64,000 bases of DNA from an uncultured Candidatus Saccharibacteria bacterium (lineage in GTDB: Bacteria; Patescibacteriota; Minisyncoccia; Phycocordibacterales; Phycocordibacteraceae): contig CAYOCH010000003.1 of assembly GCA_964402535.1 (NCBI GenBank), positions 1,825 through 65,824 of the forward strand, read 5' to 3'. Below the pieces are notes generated by a model that was not told the origin of the DNA, searched no databases, and saw nothing but the letters and a program-made list of their open reading frames with translations. Below are positions 6,301 to 32,699 of this stretch, piece after piece. The stretch's first letter is position 1, and every line of letters starts with the position of its first letter. The position numbers were made by a program, and so were the translations under genes.

Positions 6301-8235
6301 GTGAAATACCTCGACGGGTTGAATGATGCGCAAAAAAGGGCGGTTCTCGCCAAAGACGGACCGATTTCTGTCTTGGCGGGCGCCGGGAGCGGCAAAACGC
6401 GCGTCCTCACGACCCGGATCTACCACCTGATCCGCGAGGGGGTCGCGCCGCGGGAGATAGTAGCCGTCACCTTCACCAACAAGGCCGCCCGCGAGATGCG
6501 CGAGCGCGTCCGCGCTATGCTTTCTGCTCCGCACGAGGATACACAGAACGAGCGGCGAGATGGATTAATGCCGTTCATCGCCACCTTTCACGGGCTCGGG
6601 CGCGAACTCCTCGAGAGCTACGGGTCAGTGATGGACATCCCGCGCTACTTCAGCGTCTACGACCGCGACGACTCTGAGAAGGCGATCGCGACCGCTTTGA
6701 AAGCTCTCGATGTTGACGCAAAGGAGCTCTCCCCGCGCGCCGTGCTCGGCCGCATCTCGCGGGCGAAGGGCGAGGGGATGACCGCGCAGGAGTTCTCCGA
6801 ACGCTACGGCCGCTCGAGCTTCGGGGGGCGCATCGCGGCGGAGGCGTGGCTCCGCTACGACAAGGTCTTGAAGGCCGAGAAGGCGCTCGACTTCGACGAC
6901 TTGATCGCGCTGCCGCTCCGGATGCTTGAGGAACACGCGGAGGTGCGCGAGGCCGCGCAGAACCGCTGGCACTACATCCATATCGACGAATATCAAGACA
7001 CGAACGCGCTCCAGGGCCGTCTTGCGAACTTGCTCGCCGCGAAGCACAAGAACCTCTTCGTCGTCGGCGACATCGACCAGACGATTTATACCTGGCGCGG
7101 CGCGACGATCGAGAACCTGCTCGAGTTCGACAAGAACTATCCGGAGGCTCAGACGATCATTCTTGAGCAGAACTACCGTTCGACGAAGAATTTGGTCGAC
7201 GCTGCGAACGCGGTGATCGAGAAGAACAAGAACCGCAAGGAGAAGCGCTCGACGACCGAGCAGGGCCGCGGCGAACCGATCAGCATCCATATCGCGCTCT
7301 CGGCAGAGGACGAGGCGCGCTGGATCGCGCTTAAGATCCGCGAGTTGATGCGGCAAGGGACGAAGCCAGAGGATATCGCGATCCTCTTTCGCACCAACTT
7401 CCAGTCGCGAGCGCTCGAGGAGGGGCTCCTGCATGCCGGTGTTCCGTACAAGCTCCTCGGCACGCACTTCTTCGCGCGCAAGGAGGTGAAGGATGCGCTC
7501 GCGTGGGTGCGCCTCGCGATGGATCCGTCGCGTGAACAGGACAAGATCCGCGCGGCCGCAGCGCCCGCGCGCGGGATCGGCAAGGTCACGCTCGGCAAGC
7601 TTGCGGCGGGTGACCGTGCGGCGCTTCGTGCTGGAGAGCTCGCGAAGGTCGAGGCGTTCGAACGCATTGTCGCCGAACTTGCAGCAGCGACTGAGCAGCT
7701 CGCGCCATCGGAGTTCGTGAAGCTCGTGATCGAGAAGAGCGGCATGCGCCGCGTGCTCCTTGACGAGGGTTCGGCAGAGGACCGAGAGCGCTTTGAGAAC
7801 GTCGAGGAGCTCGCCTCGGTCGCCGCGCGCTACGATGCGACGCCGGGGAAGGGCGGCATCGCCGCTTTCCTCGCCGAGGCGGCGCTCGCGAGCGATCAGG
7901 ACGAGCTCGATCAAGGCGAGAAGACGGGTGTGACGCTCATGACGGTGCATGCCGCGAAAGGGCTCGAGTTCGGCACGGTGTTCGTCGCCGGCATGGAGGA
8001 AGGGCTCTTCCCCCACCAGGGGATGGGCAACGACGCCGACCGCGACGAAGAGGAGGAGCGGCGGCTCTTCTATGTCGCGATGACGCGCGCCAAAGCGCGG
8101 CTCTATCTCACGCTCGCGCGCGTGCGCAAGATCTACGGCACCGACTACGTCTCTGACCCGTCGTCGTTCATCGCCGATATCGACTCGTCGCTCTTGCTCT
8201 ATGATGAGACCGAAGGCTATGTCATCAACTATTAA
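6301..8235 (+). CDS. pcrA: ATP-dependent DNA helicase, UvrD/PcrA/Rep family
   Basis: Motifs AGAGSGKTRVLTTRI (Walker A), TFTNKAAREMRERV, DEYQDTN and VHAAKGLEF. The GTG at 6301 gives MKYLDGLNDAQKRAV, matching the PcrA N-terminus; the longest ORF starts at GTG 6259. Confidence 0.9.
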   Translation: MKYLDGLNDAQKRAVLAKDGPISVLAGAGSGKTRVLTTRIYHLIREGVAPREIVAVTFTNKAAREMRERVRAMLSAPHEDTQNERRDGLMPFIATFHGLGRELLESYGSVMDIPRYFSVYDRDDSEKAIATALKALDVDAKELSPRAVLGRISRAKGEGMTAQEFSERYGRSSFGGRIAAEAWLRYDKVLKAEKALDFDDLIALPLRMLEEHAEVREAAQNRWHYIHIDEYQDTNALQGRLANLLAAKHKNLFVVGDIDQTIYTWRGATIENLLEFDKNYPEAQTIILEQNYRSTKNLVDAANAVIEKNKNRKEKRSTTEQGRGEPISIHIALSAEDEARWIALKIRELMRQGTKPEDIAILFRTNFQSRALEEGLLHAGVPYKLLGTHFFARKEVKDALAWVRLAMDPSREQDKIRAAAAPARGIGKVTLGKLAAGDRAALRAGELAKVEAFERIVAELAAATEQLAPSEFVKLVIEKSGMRRVLLDEGSAEDRERFENVEELASVAARYDATPGKGGIAAFLAEAALASDQDELDQGEKTGVTLMTVHAAKGLEFGTVFVAGMEEGLFPHQGMGNDADRDEEEERRLFYVAMTRAKARLYLTLARVRKIYGTDYVSDPSSFIADIDSSLLLYDETEGYVINY

Positions 8236-10471: not shown

Positions 10472-12132
10472 ACACGCGCTTCGCATCAAGGGTGATCGTC
10501 GCACTGCTCGCCGTCGGCATCATCGCTCCGGCGTTCCTCGTGCCGCAGCGCGCGTCGGCACAGGTGGCGAGCGCAGCAGGGGCGGCATCGTGCTTTGCCG
10601 CCGGCGGTGTCGGTCTCGCAGGCGGCGCGGCCTCTGCAGTGCTCTCGGTGCCTGTGAATGACATGGCGAACCTGGCGCAGAACACGTTCACCGCCGGCGC
10701 GACGCAAGGCGACTGCATCAAGAACAACATCATCACGCCGCTCGCACGGCTCATGGCGCGCATCGTGATCCAGCAGATCACGGCGAGCACAATCAACTGG
10801 ATCACCGGGCGTAACGGCACCGGCCAGCCGACGTTCGTGACGAATCTCTCCCTCAATCTGCAGGCCGTCGGCGACGCGGTCGCGCTCTCGTATATCTCTC
10901 GCGTGACGACTGCCTTCAACTCGCCCTTCGGCCCGATGATCGCGCAGTCGCTCCAGCTCCAGTACAACCAGCAGTCGAGCCTCGCAGGCTTCTTCGCAGC
11001 GAATCAGTCCACGCTCAACCGGTGGTCGCCGAATCCGAATGCCTTCCTTTCCGGACAGTGGGCGCAGGGCGGGATCCCTGCGTGGTTCGCGCTCACGACG
11101 CAGACGCAGAACAACCCGTACACGCTGTATCAGGCAGCAGAAGGGCAGCTCAGATCGAACCTCTCTCAAGCAGAGACGAACCGCCGCCAGGACATCGCGC
11201 AAGGGGGCGGCTTCCTCTCGTGGTGCGGCGTGACGGACGCGGCAGCGCAGGATCAGAGCTCCGCAGCCGGCGGAGGCGCCAATCCGGGTGATGCCTGCAC
11301 CAACAGCGACGGAACGCCGGGGACCGTTCAGACACCGGGTTCGGCGATCCACGACTATGCGCAGAAAGCGATCGTCGGCGCCGGGCTCGACCAGCTCGTC
11401 TCGGTGACCGACATAGATCAGGCGCTCGGCGCGATCGCGATGGCGCTCGTCAACCAGGTACTCGGGAATGGCGGTCTCTTGGGCGCCGGCACGCCGCTGC
11501 CGGGGCGGCCGCCGATAACAAACCAGCTCCAGGCCTACTCGGGTGATACGTCCGCGAACACGGGATCCTCGTCGTCGTTCGCCGGCGCGATGCTCTCGCG
11601 CATCACTGCCTACAAGGCCGCGTGGGGGACTATCACCTCCTCGGCGGACGTCGCCTCCTCGAGCCTCAACAGGCTCGTGACCTACTGCAACTCGCAGGCG
11701 ACGGATCCGAACGCGCTGCAGGGGGTGATCAACGCGAATGTCGCAGCGGCGCAGGCGGCGCTCGCGACCGAGGTCGCGCCGATCTACACTCAAGCCGGGC
11801 AGGCGATCGCCGCGACCGACCCGACGAAGGCGCTCGCGCTCAAGGTGCAGGCAGAGTCCTCGAGCGTGACCTCGACAACGACAGCCGCGACGATCGCGGC
11901 GGACACGGGCGTCTTGGCGACCGCCGCCCCGACCGTGAGCGACCTCACATCCGTGCAGCAGAACGCCTCGGTGATGAACGGCGCCAAGGCGAACCCAGCG
12001 GGCTCGCTCACGGTCGCGGGCGGCTCGCTCGTCGATCAGATGAACCTGATCACGACGAACGCGGCGGCGCTCCAGGCCGCCTGCACGCCGAATGCAGCGA
12101 ACGGACCAAGTGTCATCACTCCGACAGGATAA
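10468..12132 (+). CDS. large secreted Ala/Thr/Gln/Asn-rich protein (hypothetical surface protein)
   Basis: 554 aa with a signal peptide (MNTRFASRVIVALLAVGIIAPAFLVPQRASAQVAS) and low-complexity hydrophilic composition; translationally coupled to its neighbours. Confidence 0.6.
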   Translation: MNTRFASRVIVALLAVGIIAPAFLVPQRASAQVASAAGAASCFAAGGVGLAGGAASAVLSVPVNDMANLAQNTFTAGATQGDCIKNNIITPLARLMARIVIQQITASTINWITGRNGTGQPTFVTNLSLNLQAVGDAVALSYISRVTTAFNSPFGPMIAQSLQLQYNQQSSLAGFFAANQSTLNRWSPNPNAFLSGQWAQGGIPAWFALTTQTQNNPYTLYQAAEGQLRSNLSQAETNRRQDIAQGGGFLSWCGVTDAAAQDQSSAAGGGANPGDACTNSDGTPGTVQTPGSAIHDYAQKAIVGAGLDQLVSVTDIDQALGAIAMALVNQVLGNGGLLGAGTPLPGRPPITNQLQAYSGDTSANTGSSSSFAGAMLSRITAYKAAWGTITSSADVASSSLNRLVTYCNSQATDPNALQGVINANVAAAQAALATEVAPIYTQAGQAIAATDPTKALALKVQAESSSVTSTTTAATIAADTGVLATAAPTVSDLTSVQQNASVMNGAKANPAGSLTVAGGSLVDQMNLITTNAAALQAACTPNAANGPSVITPTG

Positions 12133-16532: not shown

Positions 16533-17039
16533 TCATTCGAGGATTCTCCCGCCGCTCTCTTCGAGCGAGACATATGTGTAGAGGGCGTCGAGCTGGTCTT
16601 GGGTCCTGGTGCTCGAGTTCCCGTTTGCTGCCCGCGCTTTGCCGATCGTTTCGATCACACCCGGTATGTTCTTTGCGAGCGCATCCCTGAGCTCCTTCGT
16701 CACCGCGTCGAGCCCATAGCGATGCCAGACTTGCAGCAGCGGCTTCAGGTCGACGGCGATGATCGGGACGATCACATTTGTCTCGGCGCGGCAGAGCCAG
16801 AGCTGGCCGAAACGGCGTTCGATGCCATAGTTTTCGCGCGGGTCGGAGCCGGCCGGGTACGGCACGATCGTCATGAAGATCTCGATGGCTAGCGGGGCTG
16901 GGAGCGCGATCTCCTGCAGCGCTTTGTGGAGCGGGCTGAAGACGTTCGGCCCTGGCGGTACGGTGAACGTATCCCGCGCCATACTCTCGACGGTGATGAC
17001 GTCTTCGGCATGGTAGTTCTGTCTGCGCACGAGTCGCAT
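16533..17039 (-). CDS. hypothetical protein (orphan gene inserted between rpsG and fusA on the opposite strand)
   Basis: 168 aa with GC3-rich codon usage, a strong SD (GAAGGAGGG) 4 nt upstream of the ATG on the minus strand, and its own terminator. No recognisable family. Confidence 0.65.
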
Positions 17040-17162
17040 GGTCCCTCCTTCGGTTGGTGTGTAGGTGCAGCCGCCTCGACTCTACCAGCTCCTTGGCATT
17101 TTCGCCATCTTCAGGTATTCTTCACTCGACGCCCAAGCGGCTTTTATTTTTATTCATCACTT

Positions 17163-19310
17163 ATGACCCGCGACTATCCTCTCGAACGAGTGCGCAACTT
17201 CGGCATCATCGCCCACATCGACGCCGGCAAGACGACGACCTCCGAGCGCGTCCTCTACTACACTGGCGCGCAGCACAAGATCGGCGAGGTGCACGAGGGC
17301 GAGACGACGACCGACTGGATGGAGCAGGAGCGTGAGCGCGGCATCACGATCACGGCGGCCGCCATCACCTGCTTCTGGAGCAAGACGGCCGAGAAGGATA
17401 AGAAGGACACCTCCAAGAAGTTCCGTTTCAATATCATCGACACGCCGGGACACATCGACTTCACCGCCGAGGTGAAGCGTTCGATGCGCGTGCTTGACGG
17501 CGCGGTCGTCGTGTTCGACGGCGTCGCGGGCGTCGAGCCGCAGTCCGAGACGAACTGGCGCTACGCCGACGAGGCGAACGTGCCGCGCATCTGCTTTATC
17601 AACAAGCTCGACCGCACGGGCGCATCCTTCGAGAAGTCGTACGCCTCGATCCTTGACCGGCTCTCGCCGAAGGCGATCCGCATGCAGATCCCGATCGGCG
17701 AAGAGGCGCAGCACGAAGGCGTCGTCGACCTCCTCACGATGAAGGCGTTCCGCTTTGAGGGCTCGATGGGCGACGAGGTGATCGAGGGCGAAATCCCCGA
17801 GAATCTGCTCGAGGACGCTAAGAAGTACCGCGCCGAGCTCGTGGAGCGCATCGTCGAGCAGGACGACGCCGCGATGAACGCCTACCTCGAGGGCAAGGAG
17901 CCGTCAGTTGATGAGCTCAAGGCGATCCTGCGCAAGGCCGTGATCGTGAACGCCGTCTTCCCGGTTTACACCGGCTCGGCGCTTAAGAACAAGGGCGTGC
18001 AGCTCGTCCTCGACGCTGTCGTCGACTTCCTCCCGTCACCGCTCGAGCTCCCGGCTGTGACCGGCACCAACCCGAAGACCGGTGAGGCGATCGAGCGCCA
18101 CGCGAATGACGACGAGCCATTCTGCGCGCTCGCCTTCAAGCTTCAGACCGACCCGTTCGTCGGCGCGCTGACCTTCTTCCGCGTCTACTCGGGCTCTGTC
18201 TCGGCAGGTTCGTATATCTACAACTCGACGACCGGCACCAAGGAGCGCTTGGGCCGCATTGTCCGCCTCCAGGCCGACAAGCGCGAGGAGGTGCAGCAGG
18301 TCTTCACCGGCGAGATCGCCGCTGCCGTGGGCCTCAAGGACACCAAGACCTCGCACACGCTCTGCGACGAGGCGAACCCGATCGTGCTCGAGGAGATCAA
18401 GTTCCCCGAGCCGGTGGTGTCGCTCCGCATCGAGCCCAAGACGAAGGCCGACCAGGAGAAGATGGGCGTCGCGCTCAGGAAGCTTAGCGACGAGGACCCG
18501 ACCTTCCGCATCAAGACCGACGAAGAGACCAACGAGACGATCATCTCGGGCATGGGCGAGCTCCATCTCGAGATCCTCGTGGACCGCATGAAGCGCGAGT
18601 TCAACGTCGAGGCGAATGTGGGCAAGCCGCAGGTGGCCTACCGCGAGACGATCCAGGGCGCTGCAGACGCCGAGGGCAAGTACATCAAGCAGACCGGCGG
18701 CCGCGGCCAGTACGGTCACGTGAAGATCAAGATGAAGAAGCTCGAGCCGATCGAGGAGGGCGCCAAGATCGCCAAGAACACGACGCGCGAGGATCACTTC
18801 GAGTTCATCAACAACATCAAGGGCGGCGTGGTGCCGCAGGAGTACATCCCGGCGGTAGAGAAGGGCGTCCGCGAGGCGATGTCGCGCGGCTTCTTGGCCG
18901 GCTTCCCGATGGTGGATATCTCGATCGACCTCTACGACGGCTCCTATCACGATGTAGACTCCTCCGAGATCGCCTTCAAGATCGCGGCGTCGATGGCGTT
19001 CCAGGAGGCGGCCGGCAAGGCCAAGGCGGTCATCCTCGAGCCGATCATGCGCGTCGAGGTGGTGGTGCCGGAGCAGTTCATGGGCGACGTCACAGGCTCG
19101 CTCTCGGGCAAGCGCGGTCAGATAGAAGGGATGGAAGATAGGGGGATGAACAAGGCGATCCACGCCAAGGTGCCGCTCTCGGAGATGTTCGGCTACACGA
19201 CGACGCTCCGCTCGATGACCGAGGGCCGCGGCTCGATGACGATGGAGTTCGACCACTACGACGTGGTCCCGAACAACGTCGCGACCGAGATCATCGCCAG
19301 CCGCAAGTAG
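17163..19310 (+). CDS. fusA: elongation factor G
   Basis: [31 protein letters not shown]... with G-domain motifs ([12 protein letters not shown]). The ORF extends upstream to 16926, but the conserved N-terminus starts at the ATG at 17163. Confidence 0.96.
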
Positions 19311-29159: not shown

Positions 29160-29417
29160 ATGAAGGTCAAGAAAGGAGACAAGGTAAAGGTGATCACGGG
29201 CAAGGACAAGGGCAAGTCCGGCGTCGTGCTGCACGCCTACCCCAAGAAGAACGCGGTCGTCGTCGAGGGCGTCGCGCTCTACAAGCGCCACCTGAAGACG
29301 CGCACCGATCAATCCGGTCGCATCATCGAGCGTCCGCGCGCGATCGACGCGTCGAACGTCGCAGTCGTCGAGTCCGCTAAGTCCGCCAAAGGCGGATCCG
29401 CCTCCGGTGGAAAATAA
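29160..29417 (+). CDS. rplX: 50S ribosomal protein L24 (C-terminal tail ends ...KGGSASGGK)
   Basis: KVKKGDKVKVITGKDKGKSGVV, canonical L24 KOW motif; the last 8 codons encode GGSASGGK. Confidence 0.94.
   Translation: MKVKKGDKVKVITGKDKGKSGVVLHAYPKKNAVVVEGVALYKRHLKTRTDQSGRIIERPRAIDASNVAVVESAKSAKGGSASGGK
29391..29414 (+). repeat. 24-nt GGSASGGK-coding segment, copy 1 (rplX tail)
   Basis: GGCGGATCCGCCTCCGGTGGAAAA; near-identical segments at 30440-30463 and 31432-31455. Confidence 0.7.
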
Positions 29418-29425
29418 TCATCTGT

Positions 29426-29977
29426 ATGTCGATCACCAAACAGCGCCAGCAGACCGCCTATCAGGCACTCTCACAGGACTTCGGGTACACGAGCCCGATG
29501 CAGGGTCCGCGCCTCTCGAAGGTCGTGGTCTCGACCGGCGTCGGCAAGAAGCGCGACAAGAAACAGATCGAGCTCATCTCTGATCGTCTCGCTAAGATCA
29601 CGGGGCAGAAGGCGGCGCCGCGCGCCGCGCGCCTCTCGATCGCATCCTTCAAGGTGCGCGAGGGCGACACGGTCGGTCTCCAGGTCACGCTCCGCGGCGC
29701 GCGGATGTACGACTTCCTCGACAAGCTGATCCATATCACGCTCCCGCGTACGCGCGACTTCCGCGGCCTCTCGGCTAAGGCGATCGACGACATGGGCAAC
29801 ATGACGATCGGCATCAAGGAGCACACCATCTTCCCGGAGACCGCAGATGAGGACTTGAAGGACGTGTTCGGGCTCGCCGTGACGATCGTCACGACGGCTA
29901 AGTCGAAGAGTGAGGCCGAGGCGTTCCTGCGCCACATCGGGCTCCCGCTTATCGTTGACGGAGGCGTAAAACGCTGA
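29426..29977 (+). CDS. rplE: 50S ribosomal protein L5
   Basis: 183 aa with the conserved L5 C-terminal TIVTTAK... Confidence 0.95.
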
Positions 29978-30011
29978 TAATCTCAAGGTACGCTCCCCGG
30001 AGCATTTTTTT

Positions 30012-30281
30012 ATGGCTAAAACATCCCAGCTGGCGCGCCTCGCAAAGAAGGCGAAACTCGTCAAGAAGTACGCGGCAAAGCGTGCTGCCTTGAAGGCTGC
30101 CGGGGATTCAGAAGGCCTCCAGAAGCTCCCCCGCAACTCCTCGCCGGTCCGCTTGAAGAACCGCTGCGCTATCACCGGCCGCTCGCGCGGCTATATGCGC
30201 ACGTTCGGCCTCTCGCGCATCAAGTTCCGCGAGCTCGCACGCGAGGGCAAGATCCCGGGCGTTAAGAAAGCATCATGGTAA
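30012..30281 (+). CDS. rpsN: 30S ribosomal protein S14 (long, non-zinc type)
   Basis: 89 aa with the [42 protein letters not shown]-terminus. Confidence 0.93.
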
Positions 30282-30691
30282 CTGACCGCGTCGGCGATTT
30301 CATCATCCGTCTCCAGAATGCCGCCCTTATCGGCAAGGCAGACGTCGTTGTCGCGCACTCGAGCCATCTCGAGGCGATCGCACGCAAGCTCCGTGAGCTC
30401 GGTTTCATCACCGTAGTCGAGGTCGTCGCGCCCGCCGCAGGCGGGTCCGCCTCCGGCGGAAAGCGGACGCTGGTTGCAAAACTTGCCTACGACGAGCGCG
30501 GCGTCGCCAAGCTCCGCGGCGTGAAGCGCATCTCGAAGCCGGGCCGCCGCCTCTATGTCGGCGCAGCCGACGCGCACACGGTGAAGGGCGGCACGGGCGC
30601 GCGCCTCATCTCGACCTCTGCTGGCGTGATTTCCGACAAGGAGGCGCGCAAGGAGGGCAAGGGCGGCGAGAATCTCTTCGAGATCTGGTAA
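30275..30691 (+). CDS. rpsH: 30S ribosomal protein S8 (internal GGSASGGK loop)
   Basis: [16 protein letters not shown] and the C-terminal GGENLFEIW match S8; a loop between beta-strands carries [11 protein letters not shown]. Confidence 0.94.
30440..30463 (+). repeat. 24-nt GGSASGGK-coding segment, copy 2 (rpsH loop)
   Basis: GGCGGGTCCGCCTCCGGCGGAAAG. Confidence 0.7.
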
Positions 30692-30701
30692 CTGTTTACG
30701 T

Positions 30702-31232
30702 ATGTCCCGCCTCGCTAAGAAACCTATAGCAGTCGGAAAGGCCGAAGTCTCGGTCGCCGGAGGCGTGCTCACCGTGAAGGGCCCGAAGGGCACCCTCACG
30801 AAGCGCGTCCATCCGACCGTCTCGGTCACGGTCGAGAACGGCGGGGTCATGATCGCGCCGAAGGACAGCTCACGCCTCGCAAAGGCACTCACGGGCACCT
30901 TCGCCTCGCATGTGAAGAACATGATCACGGGCGTCGAGACGCCGTATGTGAAGAAGCTCGTCCTCGACGGCGTCGGCTACCGCATGGAGGTGAAAGGGAA
31001 GGAGGTCGTCCTCACGGTCGGCTTCTCGCACACGGTGCCGGTCGCGATCCCCGAGGACATCACCGCCAAGGTCGAGAAGAACGTGATGACGCTCGAGTCG
31101 ATCAACAAGGAGTCCGTCGGCCAGTTCGCCGCCGATATCCGTCGCATCAAGCCGCCGGAGCCGTACCTCGGCAAGGGCATCCATTATGAGGGCGAGGTGA
31201 TCCGCCGCAAGCAGGGCAAGAAGGCCGTCTAA
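30702..31232 (+). CDS. rplF: 50S ribosomal protein L6
   Basis: MSRLAKKPIAVGKAEVSVAGGVLTVKGPKG, canonical L6. Confidence 0.96.
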   Translation: MSRLAKKPIAVGKAEVSVAGGVLTVKGPKGTLTKRVHPTVSVTVENGGVMIAPKDSSRLAKALTGTFASHVKNMITGVETPYVKKLVLDGVGYRMEVKGKEVVLTVGFSHTVPVAIPEDITAKVEKNVMTLESINKESVGQFAADIRRIKPPEPYLGKGIHYEGEVIRRKQGKKAV

Positions 31233-31236
31233 TACC

Positions 31237-31620
31237 ATGAACCGCAAACCCACGACCAAGAGCGAACTCCGCGACCGCCGCCACGAGCGCATCCGCGCTA
31301 TCGTGCAGGGCACTGCGGCGCGCCCGCGCCTCGCGGTCTACAAGAGCAACCGCTTCGTCTCGGCGCAGCTTATCGACGACGCAGCAAGGAAGACGCTCGC
31401 ATCCGTGCACGGCCGCGAGTTCTCCACCAAAGGCGGATCCGCCTCTGGCGGGAAGGGCCTGTCGCAGTCGGTGCAGGCGAGTTCGGTGGGTGAGGCTATC
31501 GCCACGAAGGCGAAGGGTCTCGGCGTCTCCTCGGTCGTGTTCGACCGCGGTGGCTACCGCTATGCCGGCCTCGTGAAGACGCTCGCGGATGCCGCGCGCG
31601 CTGCAGGACTCGCGTTTTAA
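31237..31620 (+). CDS. rplR: 50S ribosomal protein L18 (internal GGSASGGK loop)
   Basis: C-terminal VFDRGGYRYAGLVKTLADAARAAGLAF is canonical L18; a loop carries [11 protein letters not shown]. Confidence 0.94.
   Translation: MNRKPTTKSELRDRRHERIRAIVQGTAARPRLAVYKSNRFVSAQLIDDAARKTLASVHGREFSTKGGSASGGKGLSQSVQASSVGEAIATKAKGLGVSSVVFDRGGYRYAGLVKTLADAARAAGLAF
31432..31455 (+). repeat. 24-nt GGSASGGK-coding segment, copy 3 (rplR loop)
   Basis: GGCGGATCCGCCTCTGGCGGGAAG. Confidence 0.7.
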
Positions 31621-31624
31621 TGCT

Positions 31625-32209
31625 ATGACTACGATGATGGAACAGGACAAGGCAGTAGGGAACGCACCGGATACGGCAGCAGCGCCCTCCGGCGAGATGC
31701 GCGAGCGCGCAGGGCGTGGCTCGCTCCGCGGCCGTGCGCCGCGCGGCGGCGGCCGTGCACGCCCTGCGCGCGAGCGCGGCGAGTTCGATCAGGTGACGAT
31801 CGATGCGCGCCGCGTGGCTCGCGTCATGGCCGGCGGCCGTCGCTTCAACTTCTCGCTCGTCGTCGTGATCGGCGACCATAAGGGTCGCGTCGGCGTCGGT
31901 CTCGGCAAGGGCGTCGACACGGCGCTCGCGATCGACAAGGCGACCCGAGACGCCAAGAAGAACCTCATCACCGTCCCGCGCACCTCTTCGGGCTCGATCC
32001 CGCACCAGGTCTCCAAGAAGTACGCCTCCTCGATCATCGAGATCATGCCGTCGAAGGGCCGCGGTCTCGTCGCCGGCTCGGCGATGCGCACCGTGCTCGA
32101 TCTCGCCGGCGTGACCGACGTAGTGACCAAGATCCACTCGCGCTCTAAGAACAAGCTCACGATCGCGCGCGCGACGATCGGCGCCCTGAAGAAGCTCCGC
32201 ACGGCCTAA
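31625..32209 (+). CDS. rpsE: 30S ribosomal protein S5 (Arg/Gly-rich N-terminal extension)
   Basis: The ATG at 31625 follows the rplR stop; S5 core VIGDHKGRVGVGLGKG...GSAMRTVLDLAGV. Confidence 0.93.
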   Translation: MTTMMEQDKAVGNAPDTAAAPSGEMRERAGRGSLRGRAPRGGGRARPARERGEFDQVTIDARRVARVMAGGRRFNFSLVVVIGDHKGRVGVGLGKGVDTALAIDKATRDAKKNLITVPRTSSGSIPHQVSKKYASSIIEIMPSKGRGLVAGSAMRTVLDLAGVTDVVTKIHSRSKNKLTIARATIGALKKLRTA

Positions 32210-32219
32210 CCGCTTTACC

Positions 32220-32699
32220 ATGCAGCTCAACACGATCTCTCCTCGCACGAAGAACACCAAGCGCCCGGCTGTCGGACGCGGCGGCAAGCGCGGCAAGACC
32301 TCGGGCCGTGGCGGCAAGGGCCAGACGGCGCGCGCCGGCCACAAGATCCGCCCGGCCGTCCGTGACCTGATCTGGAAGCTCCCGAAACGCCGCGGCCACG
32401 GCAAGAACCGCTCGCGCACCGTCCGCACGAACCGCATCGCGGCCTCGGTCGTGAACCTCGCAGCGCTCGAGGCAGCCTATAACGCAGGTGAGACGGTCAC
32501 GCCGGCGTCGCTTCTCGCTAAGGGGCTCGTCCGTCGCGCTAAGGGCCGCGCGCCTGAGGTGAAGATCCTCGGCACCGGCACCATCTCTAAGGCACTCATC
32601 GTGAAGGGTTGTGCAGTCTCTGAAAACGCGGCAAAGGCGATACTAGCGGCAGGCGGTTCATCCAGCACTGACATTAGAGCTGGACAAGGCCATGCTTAA
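32220..32699 (+). CDS. rplO: 50S ribosomal protein L15
   Basis: MQLNTISP...GRGGKRGKTSGRGGKGQ, canonical L15. It directly follows rpsE, with no rpmD/L30 gene between them. Confidence 0.95.
   Translation: MQLNTISPRTKNTKRPAVGRGGKRGKTSGRGGKGQTARAGHKIRPAVRDLIWKLPKRRGHGKNRSRTVRTNRIAASVVNLAALEAAYNAGETVTPASLLAKGLVRRAKGRAPEVKILGTGTISKALIVKGCAVSENAAKAILAAGGSSSTDIRAGQGHA

Follow-up and report, generated by a model that had tools for sequence, protein, structure and literature searches.

A 30-nucleotide double-hairpin element inserted in frame into ribosomal protein genes and other unrelated genes of uncultured bacteria

Introduction

Why should three different ribosomal proteins encoded close together carry the same eight-residue peptide? 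This question is raised by a 64-kb stretch of DNA from contig CAYOCH010000003.1 of an uncultured Candidatus Saccharibacteria bacterium (the whole stretch analyzed, referred to here as the window). The window contains a ribosomal protein gene cluster in the order L22-S3-L16-L29-S17-L14-L24-L5-S14-S8-L6-L18-S5-L15-SecY (62% GC). Its S8 protein has its closest relatives in organisms annotated as Candidatus Kaiserbacteria or Paceibacteria, members of the Patescibacteria (candidate phyla radiation, CPR). A first-pass annotation had noticed that L24, S8 and L18 share the octapeptide GGSASGGK, encoded by near-identical 24-mers at 29391–29414 (the end of rplX), 30440–30463 (within rpsH) and 31432–31455 (within rplR). 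It held that these 24-mers differ only at synonymous positions and are very unlikely to have arisen by chance. Both statements stand, as do the coordinates and sequences: the L24 24-mer differs from that of S8 at three positions and from that of L18 at four, all of them synonymous, and dinucleotide-preserving shuffles give an expectation of 0 matches.

We describe here a family of 30-nucleotide elements of which the three peptides are almost certainly copies. The element is a discrete block that occurs as a clean 30-nucleotide insertion, without target-site duplication, in unrelated genes of distant uncultured bacteria. At its sites in the L18 and S8 loops, some lineages carry it while their nearest relatives have the empty form, and old copies decay. 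We consider it likely that the family consists of insertions that arise at the level of DNA and are then filtered by selection.

Results

Three copies of a 30-nucleotide unit in the ribosomal protein cluster

A six-frame scan of the window finds GGSASGGK exactly three times, at the C-terminus of L24, in a loop of S8 and in a loop of L18. In pattern searches the L18 24-mer was matched only through its reverse complement, its fourth difference blocking the forward match, which reveals its palindromic nature; GGCGGATCCGCC is perfectly palindromic over its 12 nucleotides. The repeated unit extends beyond the 24 nucleotides to 30, and a scan tolerating six mismatches found no further copies in the window. 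The three copies and their host genes, with the subfamilies defined below, are as follows.

29160–29417, + strand: rplX (L24, 85 amino acids), an open reading frame (ORF), host of copy 1
29382–29411, + strand: element copy 1, subfamily A, TCCGCCAAAGGCGGATCCGCCTCCGGTGGA, read as SAKGGSASGG; 1 mismatch to the core
30275–30691, + strand: rpsH (S8, 138 amino acids; PF00410), host of copy 2
30431–30460, + strand: element copy 2, subfamily B, CCCGCCGCAGGCGGGTCCGCCTCCGGCGGA, S8 residues 53–62
31237–31620, + strand: rplR (L18, 127 amino acids; PF00861), host of copy 3
31423–31452, + strand: element copy 3, subfamily A, slightly decayed, TCCACCAAAGGCGGATCCGCCTCTGGCGGG, read as STKGGSASGG, L18 residues 63–72

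Each window core is made up of two tandem 15-nucleotide units, each with a 6-bp stem and a 3-nucleotide loop: TCCGCCAAAGGCGGA-TCCGCCTCCGGTGGA in L24, CCCGCCGCAGGCGGG-TCCGCCTCCGGCGGA in S8 and TCCACCAAAGGCGGA-TCCGCCTCTGGCGGG in L18. Copy 1 is followed by AAA TAA, thereby forming the C-terminal tail of L24, and has a calculated RNA fold of −18.4 kcal/mol (z −3.5). Copy 3, flanked by TTC on the left and AAG on the right, folds weakly (z −1.5 as RNA and −0.6 as DNA). Each copy differs from the family consensus at only one or two positions, whilst the L24 and L18 copies are four apart. This pattern points to an independent origin of the copies from consensus-like sources rather than from one another. 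By our own arithmetic, uniform placement would put three copies inside 2.1 kb of 64 kb with a probability of about 0.003. Ribosomal proteins are not obviously over-represented among the wider set of host proteins described below.

In the comparisons that follow, L-numbered loci and P-numbered proteins denote relatives and metagenome loci. At the L24 site (29367–29381), the codons TCC GCT AAG directly precede the full element, producing a SAK-SAK sequence. The L24 tails of L004, L008, L024 and L045 read ...ESAKG(V)KK, encoded by TCA GCC AAA GGC, and resemble one decayed unit. The SAK before the L24 element could be an older remnant, the product of slippage or a chance occurrence.

The copies are insertions or extensions relative to orthologs

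Alignment with orthologs, proposed in the first-pass annotation as a means of recognizing insertions, identifies all three copies as insertions or extensions. The L18 protein of the window exceeds all 66 relatives drawn from genomes and metagenome loci in length, by 11 residues. Relatives of S8 are mostly 134 amino acids long with a short loop of the KAKGESEV type, and the corresponding loop in the window is longer. L24 relatives end in ...VESAKGK or ...VESAKGVKK, and the tail in the window is 10 residues longer than the VESAKGK-type tails.

The structural context of the S8 and L18 copies was modeled with AlphaFold2 using 60-sequence alignments. The S8 copy (residues 53–62) is placed in a loop between predicted strands at 45–51 and 65–70, with predicted local distance difference test (pLDDT) values below 50 at residues 58–60. 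The L18 copy (residues 63–72) is placed in a loop between predicted helices at 59–62 and 77–94, with pLDDT below 50 at residues 66–72. In each model the copy falls in the only segment with pLDDT below 50.

The element is a pair of adjacent hairpins

The first-pass annotation had suggested looking for the 24-mer elsewhere, and a scan of metagenome contigs with GGCGGRTCCGCCTCYGGNGG returned at least 120 matching loci. We analyzed 122 unique sites (124 in the ORF counts). Aligned on the center of the element, these sites have high information content only from −18 to +17; outside this interval it is zero and the flanks are random. The element has the form (T/C)CCGCC-NNN-GGCGG(A/G) followed by TCCGCC-NNN-GGCGGA, that is, two adjacent 6-bp hairpins of 15 nucleotides each, which together make a near-palindrome centered on GGATCC. 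Among the metagenome sites there are always two units and never three, and no relatives longer than 30 bp were seen. The ends are (T/C)CCG...CGGA, and a conserved GTAG or CGTC end tetranucleotide is not present.

Positions −15 and −1 covary across the 122 sites (T-A in 87, C-G in 23 and other combinations in 12). This covariation supports the 6-bp stem of the first hairpin and defines subfamily A (TCCGCC...GGCGGA) and subfamily B (CCCGCC...GGCGGG). The consensus has a calculated fold of −24.4 kcal/mol (z −5.5). A single long hairpin is the thermodynamic optimum, yet the −15/+14 pairing that it contains fails in 32 sites, mostly as C-A, and we rejected this arrangement. Arrays of the CRISPR/TIGR type, DNA uptake sequences and parS-like sites were also set aside, given that there are at most two units, that density is low and that the element arrives by insertion rather than by substitution.

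A second, longer palindromic family, TGTCATTCTGAG-(T/C)CCGCC-NNN-GGCGG(G/A)-CGAAGAATC, has the CCGCC-NNN-GGCGG hairpin core in common with the 30-nucleotide element. It occurs at L104:~10800–10840, L142:~925–965 and ~6880–6920, and L177:~1385–1480, and may be a relative or possible parent of the shorter element.

The element occurs in many unrelated genes

Groundwater and sediment are among the sources of the element-bearing contigs, whose GC content spans 30–72%. Of the 124 sites, 92 fall within ORFs of 150 amino acids or more (55 of 76 on contigs below 50% GC). Hosts verified with Pfam and NCBIfam are GyrA, RecG, UvrB, AlaRS, UvrD, LysRS, KsgA, the ribosomal proteins S19 and L23, and type IX secretion system (T9SS) type A sorting domains; the S19 copy forms a C-terminal tail, as in L24. 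Judged from sequence, further hosts look like AtpA/AtpD, DnaJ, RseP, XerC/D and RluD. Since T9SS sorting domains mark lineages of the Bacteroidota type (Fibrobacterota–Chlorobiota–Bacteroidota, FCB), the element is not confined to Patescibacteria.

The element is rare in viral contigs, with three exact matches to the general pattern. On one IMG/VR viral contig, a reverse transcriptase of the group II intron type (L073:384–1820, − strand) ends in ...GGSASGGK, the element plus stop codon forming its tail as in L24 and S19. No element was found among plasmids (PLSDB, 7.3 Gb) or phages (INPHARED, 2.3 Gb), where BLAST with a 36-mer gave chance partial matches only. A peptide profile search (45 columns) returned just four T9SS tail fragments. 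In full-text literature searches, the DNA string and the peptide appeared only in synthetic constructs and linkers, and neither a natural element nor a corresponding concept for Patescibacteria was described.

Density is three copies per 64 kb in the window and about one extra copy per 38 kb of element-bearing loci. The UvrD gene at L166:59–2008 (− strand) carries two copies 159 nucleotides apart. Close pairs are also found in L097, L121, L167 and L089, some of them 44–52 nucleotides apart in apparently non-coding stretches. These pairs hint at local reinsertion.

Filled and empty sites define a clean insertion

The S8 genes of L064 (filled) and L195, which come from Hainich wells in the same aquifer, differ by exactly CCCGCCGGAGGCGGGTCCGCCTCCGGCGGA, a 30-nucleotide block lying between GAG GTG/ACC and AAG AAA. 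The S8 proteins of L063 and L064 are only ~70% identical to that of the window, but their genes match it exactly over the 24-nucleotide segment GGCGGGTCCGCCTCCGGCGGAAAG. At least 4–5 distinct junction contexts occur in S8, with empty nearest neighbors; the window protein, P0002, P0006, P0010 and P0096 differ in their junctions. One S8 clade inherits the insert vertically, with decay to GRSSSGG, EDKSPFKG and KGDHAASG.

In L18 the window, L197 and L200 read TTC(30 nt)AAG, and L198 is empty, TTC^AAGGGA (carets mark junctions). Six further lineages are filled at the same site, EF^SA(K/E/G)GGSASG...^K, and have neighbors 82–89% identical that are empty forms of 116 amino acids. A half copy is found in the L18 gene of L199 (817–1182, P0131), which keeps a single 15-nucleotide unit (SAKGG) at that site, and P0206 has a shorter remnant or one unit. 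Copies seem to decay through loss of one direct-repeat unit.

The third comparison concerns a tRNA gene. A full-length tRNA-Leu(UAA)-like gene at L105:2373–2490 (− strand) contains the element in its anticodon loop, CTT(30 nt)AAAA, between nucleotides 34 and 35. An intact tRNA-Leu(UAA) gene nearby (L105:2731–2817, − strand) reads CTTAAAA, and a third, 5′-truncated tRNA-Leu copy in L105 has the same interruption. The classical group I intron of cyanobacterial tRNA-Leu likewise lies at nucleotides 34/35.

No target-site duplication is present in the three filled/empty comparisons (S8, L18 and tRNA-Leu), nor at the metagenome sites, where the two flanks match no more often than at random, whichever boundary and whichever k from 2 to 9 is taken. 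The flanks have the consensus tTt^aAA, T-rich on the left and AAR on the right, and the empty sites are TTC^AAG, CTT^AAAA and ACC^AAG.

Conservation resides in the DNA rather than in the peptide

Across three L18 lineages the element is identical at 27–29 of 30 positions (8–9 of 10 third positions), compared with 72–73% for the flanking gene (47–53% at third positions). This excess of similarity implies either that the insertions are younger than the lineages or that the DNA is constrained. The search pattern leaves two codons unconstrained. At 22 of 26 forward sites in hosts below 45% GC these are TCC GCC, and the same hosts use TCC for 15% of their Ser and GCC for 30% of their Ala codons. 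A conserved peptide whose codons vary with the host is thus not what is seen; synonymous positions are fixed against host usage.

On contigs below 50% GC, 47 of the 55 copies within ORFs of at least 150 amino acids are read in frame 0, the Gly/Ser frame. Copies in other frames exist (PPKADPPLAE, RRRIRLWRK), and others lie outside long ORFs. We infer that the frame bias is a selection filter and that the third frame is partly excluded by the T^AA target, which would there be a stop codon. Relative to the coding strand, one orientation is also modestly favored, by ~3:1.

Other features of the window

Pfam matches on 30 window proteins are to housekeeping genes only. There is no rpmD (L30) gene between rpsE and rplO (31620–32220), an absence that is usual in Patescibacteria. 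S5 has an Arg/Gly-rich N-terminal extension of ~60 residues. EF-G (16926–19310) is 794 amino acids long, and its GTPase domain match is stretched across residues 87–371, which implies that the protein is extended at its N-terminus and that its G domain contains a large insertion. A tRNA scan found no tRNA genes in the 64 kb, and at Rfam gathering thresholds there were 0 matches, including no ribosomal-protein leader despite the long cluster.

Discussion

A probable DNA-level insertion filtered by selection

On the reading that we regard as likely, the element would be selfish or mutational DNA whose spread takes place at the DNA level. Most insertions would be removed by purifying selection, and the survivors would be those with lengths in multiples of three in disordered loops and tails, translated in the one frame that yields the flexible, hydrophilic sequence S-A-x-G-G-S-A-x-G-G. 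Survival confined to a harmless frame in loops and tails would explain why essential ribosomal proteins tolerate the element. The proposal of the first-pass annotation that a mobile mini-insertion has entered loops and tails was thus essentially right, although the unit is a double hairpin of 30 nucleotides and not a 24-nucleotide cassette. The insertion is specific neither to one lineage, as that annotation had proposed, nor to ribosomal proteins, in view of the range of host GC content, the dozens of unrelated host proteins and the tRNA gene.

Several observations weigh against this reading. The net size of the insertion at the L18 site varies between 30, 33 and 36 nucleotides, and the right junction is not fully understood. 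Some of the patchy presence of the element could stem from a palindrome being precisely lost several times rather than gained several times. The window and ~0.73 Mb of element-bearing loci yielded no transposase, reverse transcriptase or other shared neighbor, and mobility is therefore deduced from distribution. The search pattern fixed 17 bases, the metagenome set covers only variants with the loops and centers that it allows, and conservation is judged at the free positions only. The frame bias alone cannot separate an only harmless frame from a useful peptide. Finally, a conserved cellular function of the DNA or RNA hairpin would likewise predict near-identity among hosts that differ widely in GC content.

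This last point leads to the alternative that the hairpin is a nucleic-acid signal under selection in DNA or mRNA, where it could be bound by a nucleoid, segregation or uptake protein or processed by an RNase, with the peptide as a by-product. The almost invariant sequence across hosts of 30–72% GC, conservation above that of synonymous sites, the covariation that keeps the stem paired, the strong fold and the ~3:1 orientation bias would all suit such a signal. They are offset by the free decay of copies after insertion (the window L18 copy with its z of −1.5, the S8 forms GRSSSGG and EDKSPFKG, and the half-deleted L18 copy) and by nearest relatives that manage without the element at the same site. 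Disruption of a tRNA anticodon loop, a low and irregular density, positions that follow no rule with respect to where genes start or end, and the lack of Rfam family matches also speak against a signal, and we judge this alternative unlikely. Selection could instead act on the peptide itself as a linker, modification site or recognition tag gained convergently or by exchange, which would account for the 47 of 55 copies in the SAxGGSAxGG frame, for their location in exposed loops and tails and for their presence in L24, S8, L18, S19 and L23. The codons, however, are fixed against host usage, some copies are read in the remaining two frames or lie in non-coding DNA or a tRNA gene, and the host proteins have no common function or cellular location. 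The ribosomal hosts of the window are far apart on the ribosome, S8 being in the 30S body, L18 in the central protuberance and L24 at the tunnel exit. A selected peptide, and with it the shared ribosomal tag envisaged in the first-pass annotation, is highly improbable.

The proximity of three copies within 2.1 kb, the short tandem SAK-SAK duplication in the L24 tail, the direct-repeat relationship of the two units and the existence of a half copy might suggest that the sequence was copied within the genome, by gene conversion among the three neighboring ribosomal genes or by local slippage, with no mobile family involved. The same element is nevertheless present in at least 120 unrelated loci, and insertions in S8 and L18 occur separately in other lineages. 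The window itself contains two subfamilies, with copies nearer to the consensus (1–2 differences) than L24 is to L18 (4), which argues against the simple form of the gene-conversion patch that the first-pass annotation had considered. Local copying as a full explanation is already contradicted, and we hold the alternative as a whole to be very unlikely. An assembly, adapter or engineering artifact, also raised in that annotation, comes to mind because the central GGATCC is a BamHI site within the palindrome, Gly/Ser linkers are common in cloning, and the peptide string is found in the literature only as a synthetic linker. Against this, the flanks are contiguous and in frame, and identical S8 and L18 insert proteins on a 68-kb contig are present in the NCBI and the independent Logan assemblies. 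The same S8 insertion is seen in three replicate samples assembled separately, and the variants and decay, by substitution and half-deletion, track phylogeny. The element is also absent from plasmid (7.3 Gb) and phage (2.3 Gb) records, in which sequence derived from vectors should turn up. An artifact has almost no probability in our estimation.

A possible mode of mobilization

If DNA-level insertion is correct, the element might be mobilized in trans by an enzyme that recognizes hairpins in single-stranded DNA, as do the tyrosine (histidine-hydrophobic-histidine, HUH) transposases of the insertion sequence (IS) family IS200/IS605 and of repetitive extragenic palindromic (REP) elements with their REP-associated tyrosine transposases (RAYTs). 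We suggest this because the element has two hairpins on the same strand, inserts without target duplication at a short preferred target and favors one orientation. It is the most speculative step of our account, and we regard it as doubtful. An all-against-all comparison revealed no transposase-like family among 1,627 clustered ORFs of the element loci, and a phmmer probe of limited sensitivity with an IS200 TnpA sequence gave 0 matches in 10,417 ORFs. Nor did the window or the ORFs of 120 loci yield a RAYT gene; these searches covered single loci, and the genomes could encode a trans-acting enzyme at another place.

Relationship to known elements

Rickettsia palindromic elements, as outlined in PMC10969869, are selfish palindromic DNA inserted in frame in unrelated, often essential genes, where the encoded peptide spares the protein fold. 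Their length is given as ~100–150 bp, with ten sequence families restricted to Rickettsia, in the same source's summary of Ogata et al. 2000. As far as that outline goes, our element resembles them in its in-frame insertion into unrelated protein genes at structurally permissive positions. It differs in being 30 bp long (five times shorter), in having one nearly invariant sequence, in extending from Patescibacteria to T9SS-bearing bacteria and in hitting the same sites repeatedly; the two are set apart here by length. REP elements and their REPIN arrangements, mobilized by RAYTs, are non-autonomous GC-rich stem-loops of 20–40 nucleotides that produce no target-site duplication (PMC3733652, PMC8049555). 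REPs are extragenic and species-specific, carry a GTAG or CGTC end tag and occur in hundreds of copies (PMC3733652, PMC8049555). Our element is likewise an imperfect palindrome (30 nucleotides) with GC-rich, covarying stems and no target-site duplication, but it is mostly intragenic and translated, tagless, cross-phylum and sparse (~1 copy per 20–40 kb). MITEs, the miniature inverted-repeat transposable elements, measure ~50–500 bp, with terminal inverted repeats from a parent IS, unlike the 30-bp element with its lack of a target-site duplication. In behavior, then, the element matches the Rickettsia palindromic elements, and it lacks defining features of REPs (extragenic location, GTAG/CGTC tag) and of MITEs (target-site duplication, size).

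The ends of IS200/IS605 elements comprise two similar hairpins on the same strand, with insertion beside a short preferred sequence and no target duplication, and in the known elements these hairpins are at least 100 nucleotides apart and associated with defined cleavage motifs. The 30-nucleotide element is similar in its two same-strand hairpins, the absence of a duplication and its tTt^aAA target preference; it differs in that its hairpins are adjacent and no TnpA was found in the ORFs of the window or loci. Short GC-rich hairpins are also known in organelles, such as the GC clusters of yeast mitochondria. The repetitive hairpin-forming elements of sponge mitochondria are a further example (PMC2800124). 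These sponge and yeast elements, also short and GC-rich, invade AT-rich genomes including coding regions, in recurrent independent invasions. They differ in being organellar, in having other sequences, in being usually intergenic and in showing no consistent reading frame.

Implications

It is possible, and we propose it tentatively, that the element represents an unrecognized class of ultra-small (30 bp) mobile element that consists of two recognition hairpins alone and is moved in trans by a dedicated single-strand DNA enzyme or a repair pathway. Such elements would insert at TT^AA-like sites and spread between phyla. Essential proteins of ultra-small (CPR) and other uncultured bacteria would keep acquiring 10-residue Gly/Ser loop insertions from them, and tRNA genes might likewise gain intron-like interruptions. 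The near-identical sequence in Patescibacteria and T9SS-bearing bacteria implies either horizontal spread or a widely shared hairpin-recognizing enzyme.

Confirmation would make this the shortest repeated insertion element known to colonize coding sequence, and a clear natural case of selfish DNA surviving as the encoder of a harmless linker. Lineage-specific loop insertions in universal proteins, including the ribosomal proteins used as phylogenetic markers, would gain a concrete mechanism. Homoplasious indels would arise in such markers and could mislead alignments. The 30-mer provides a search key for genome surveys and, through phylogenetic profiling, for the gene that mobilizes it.

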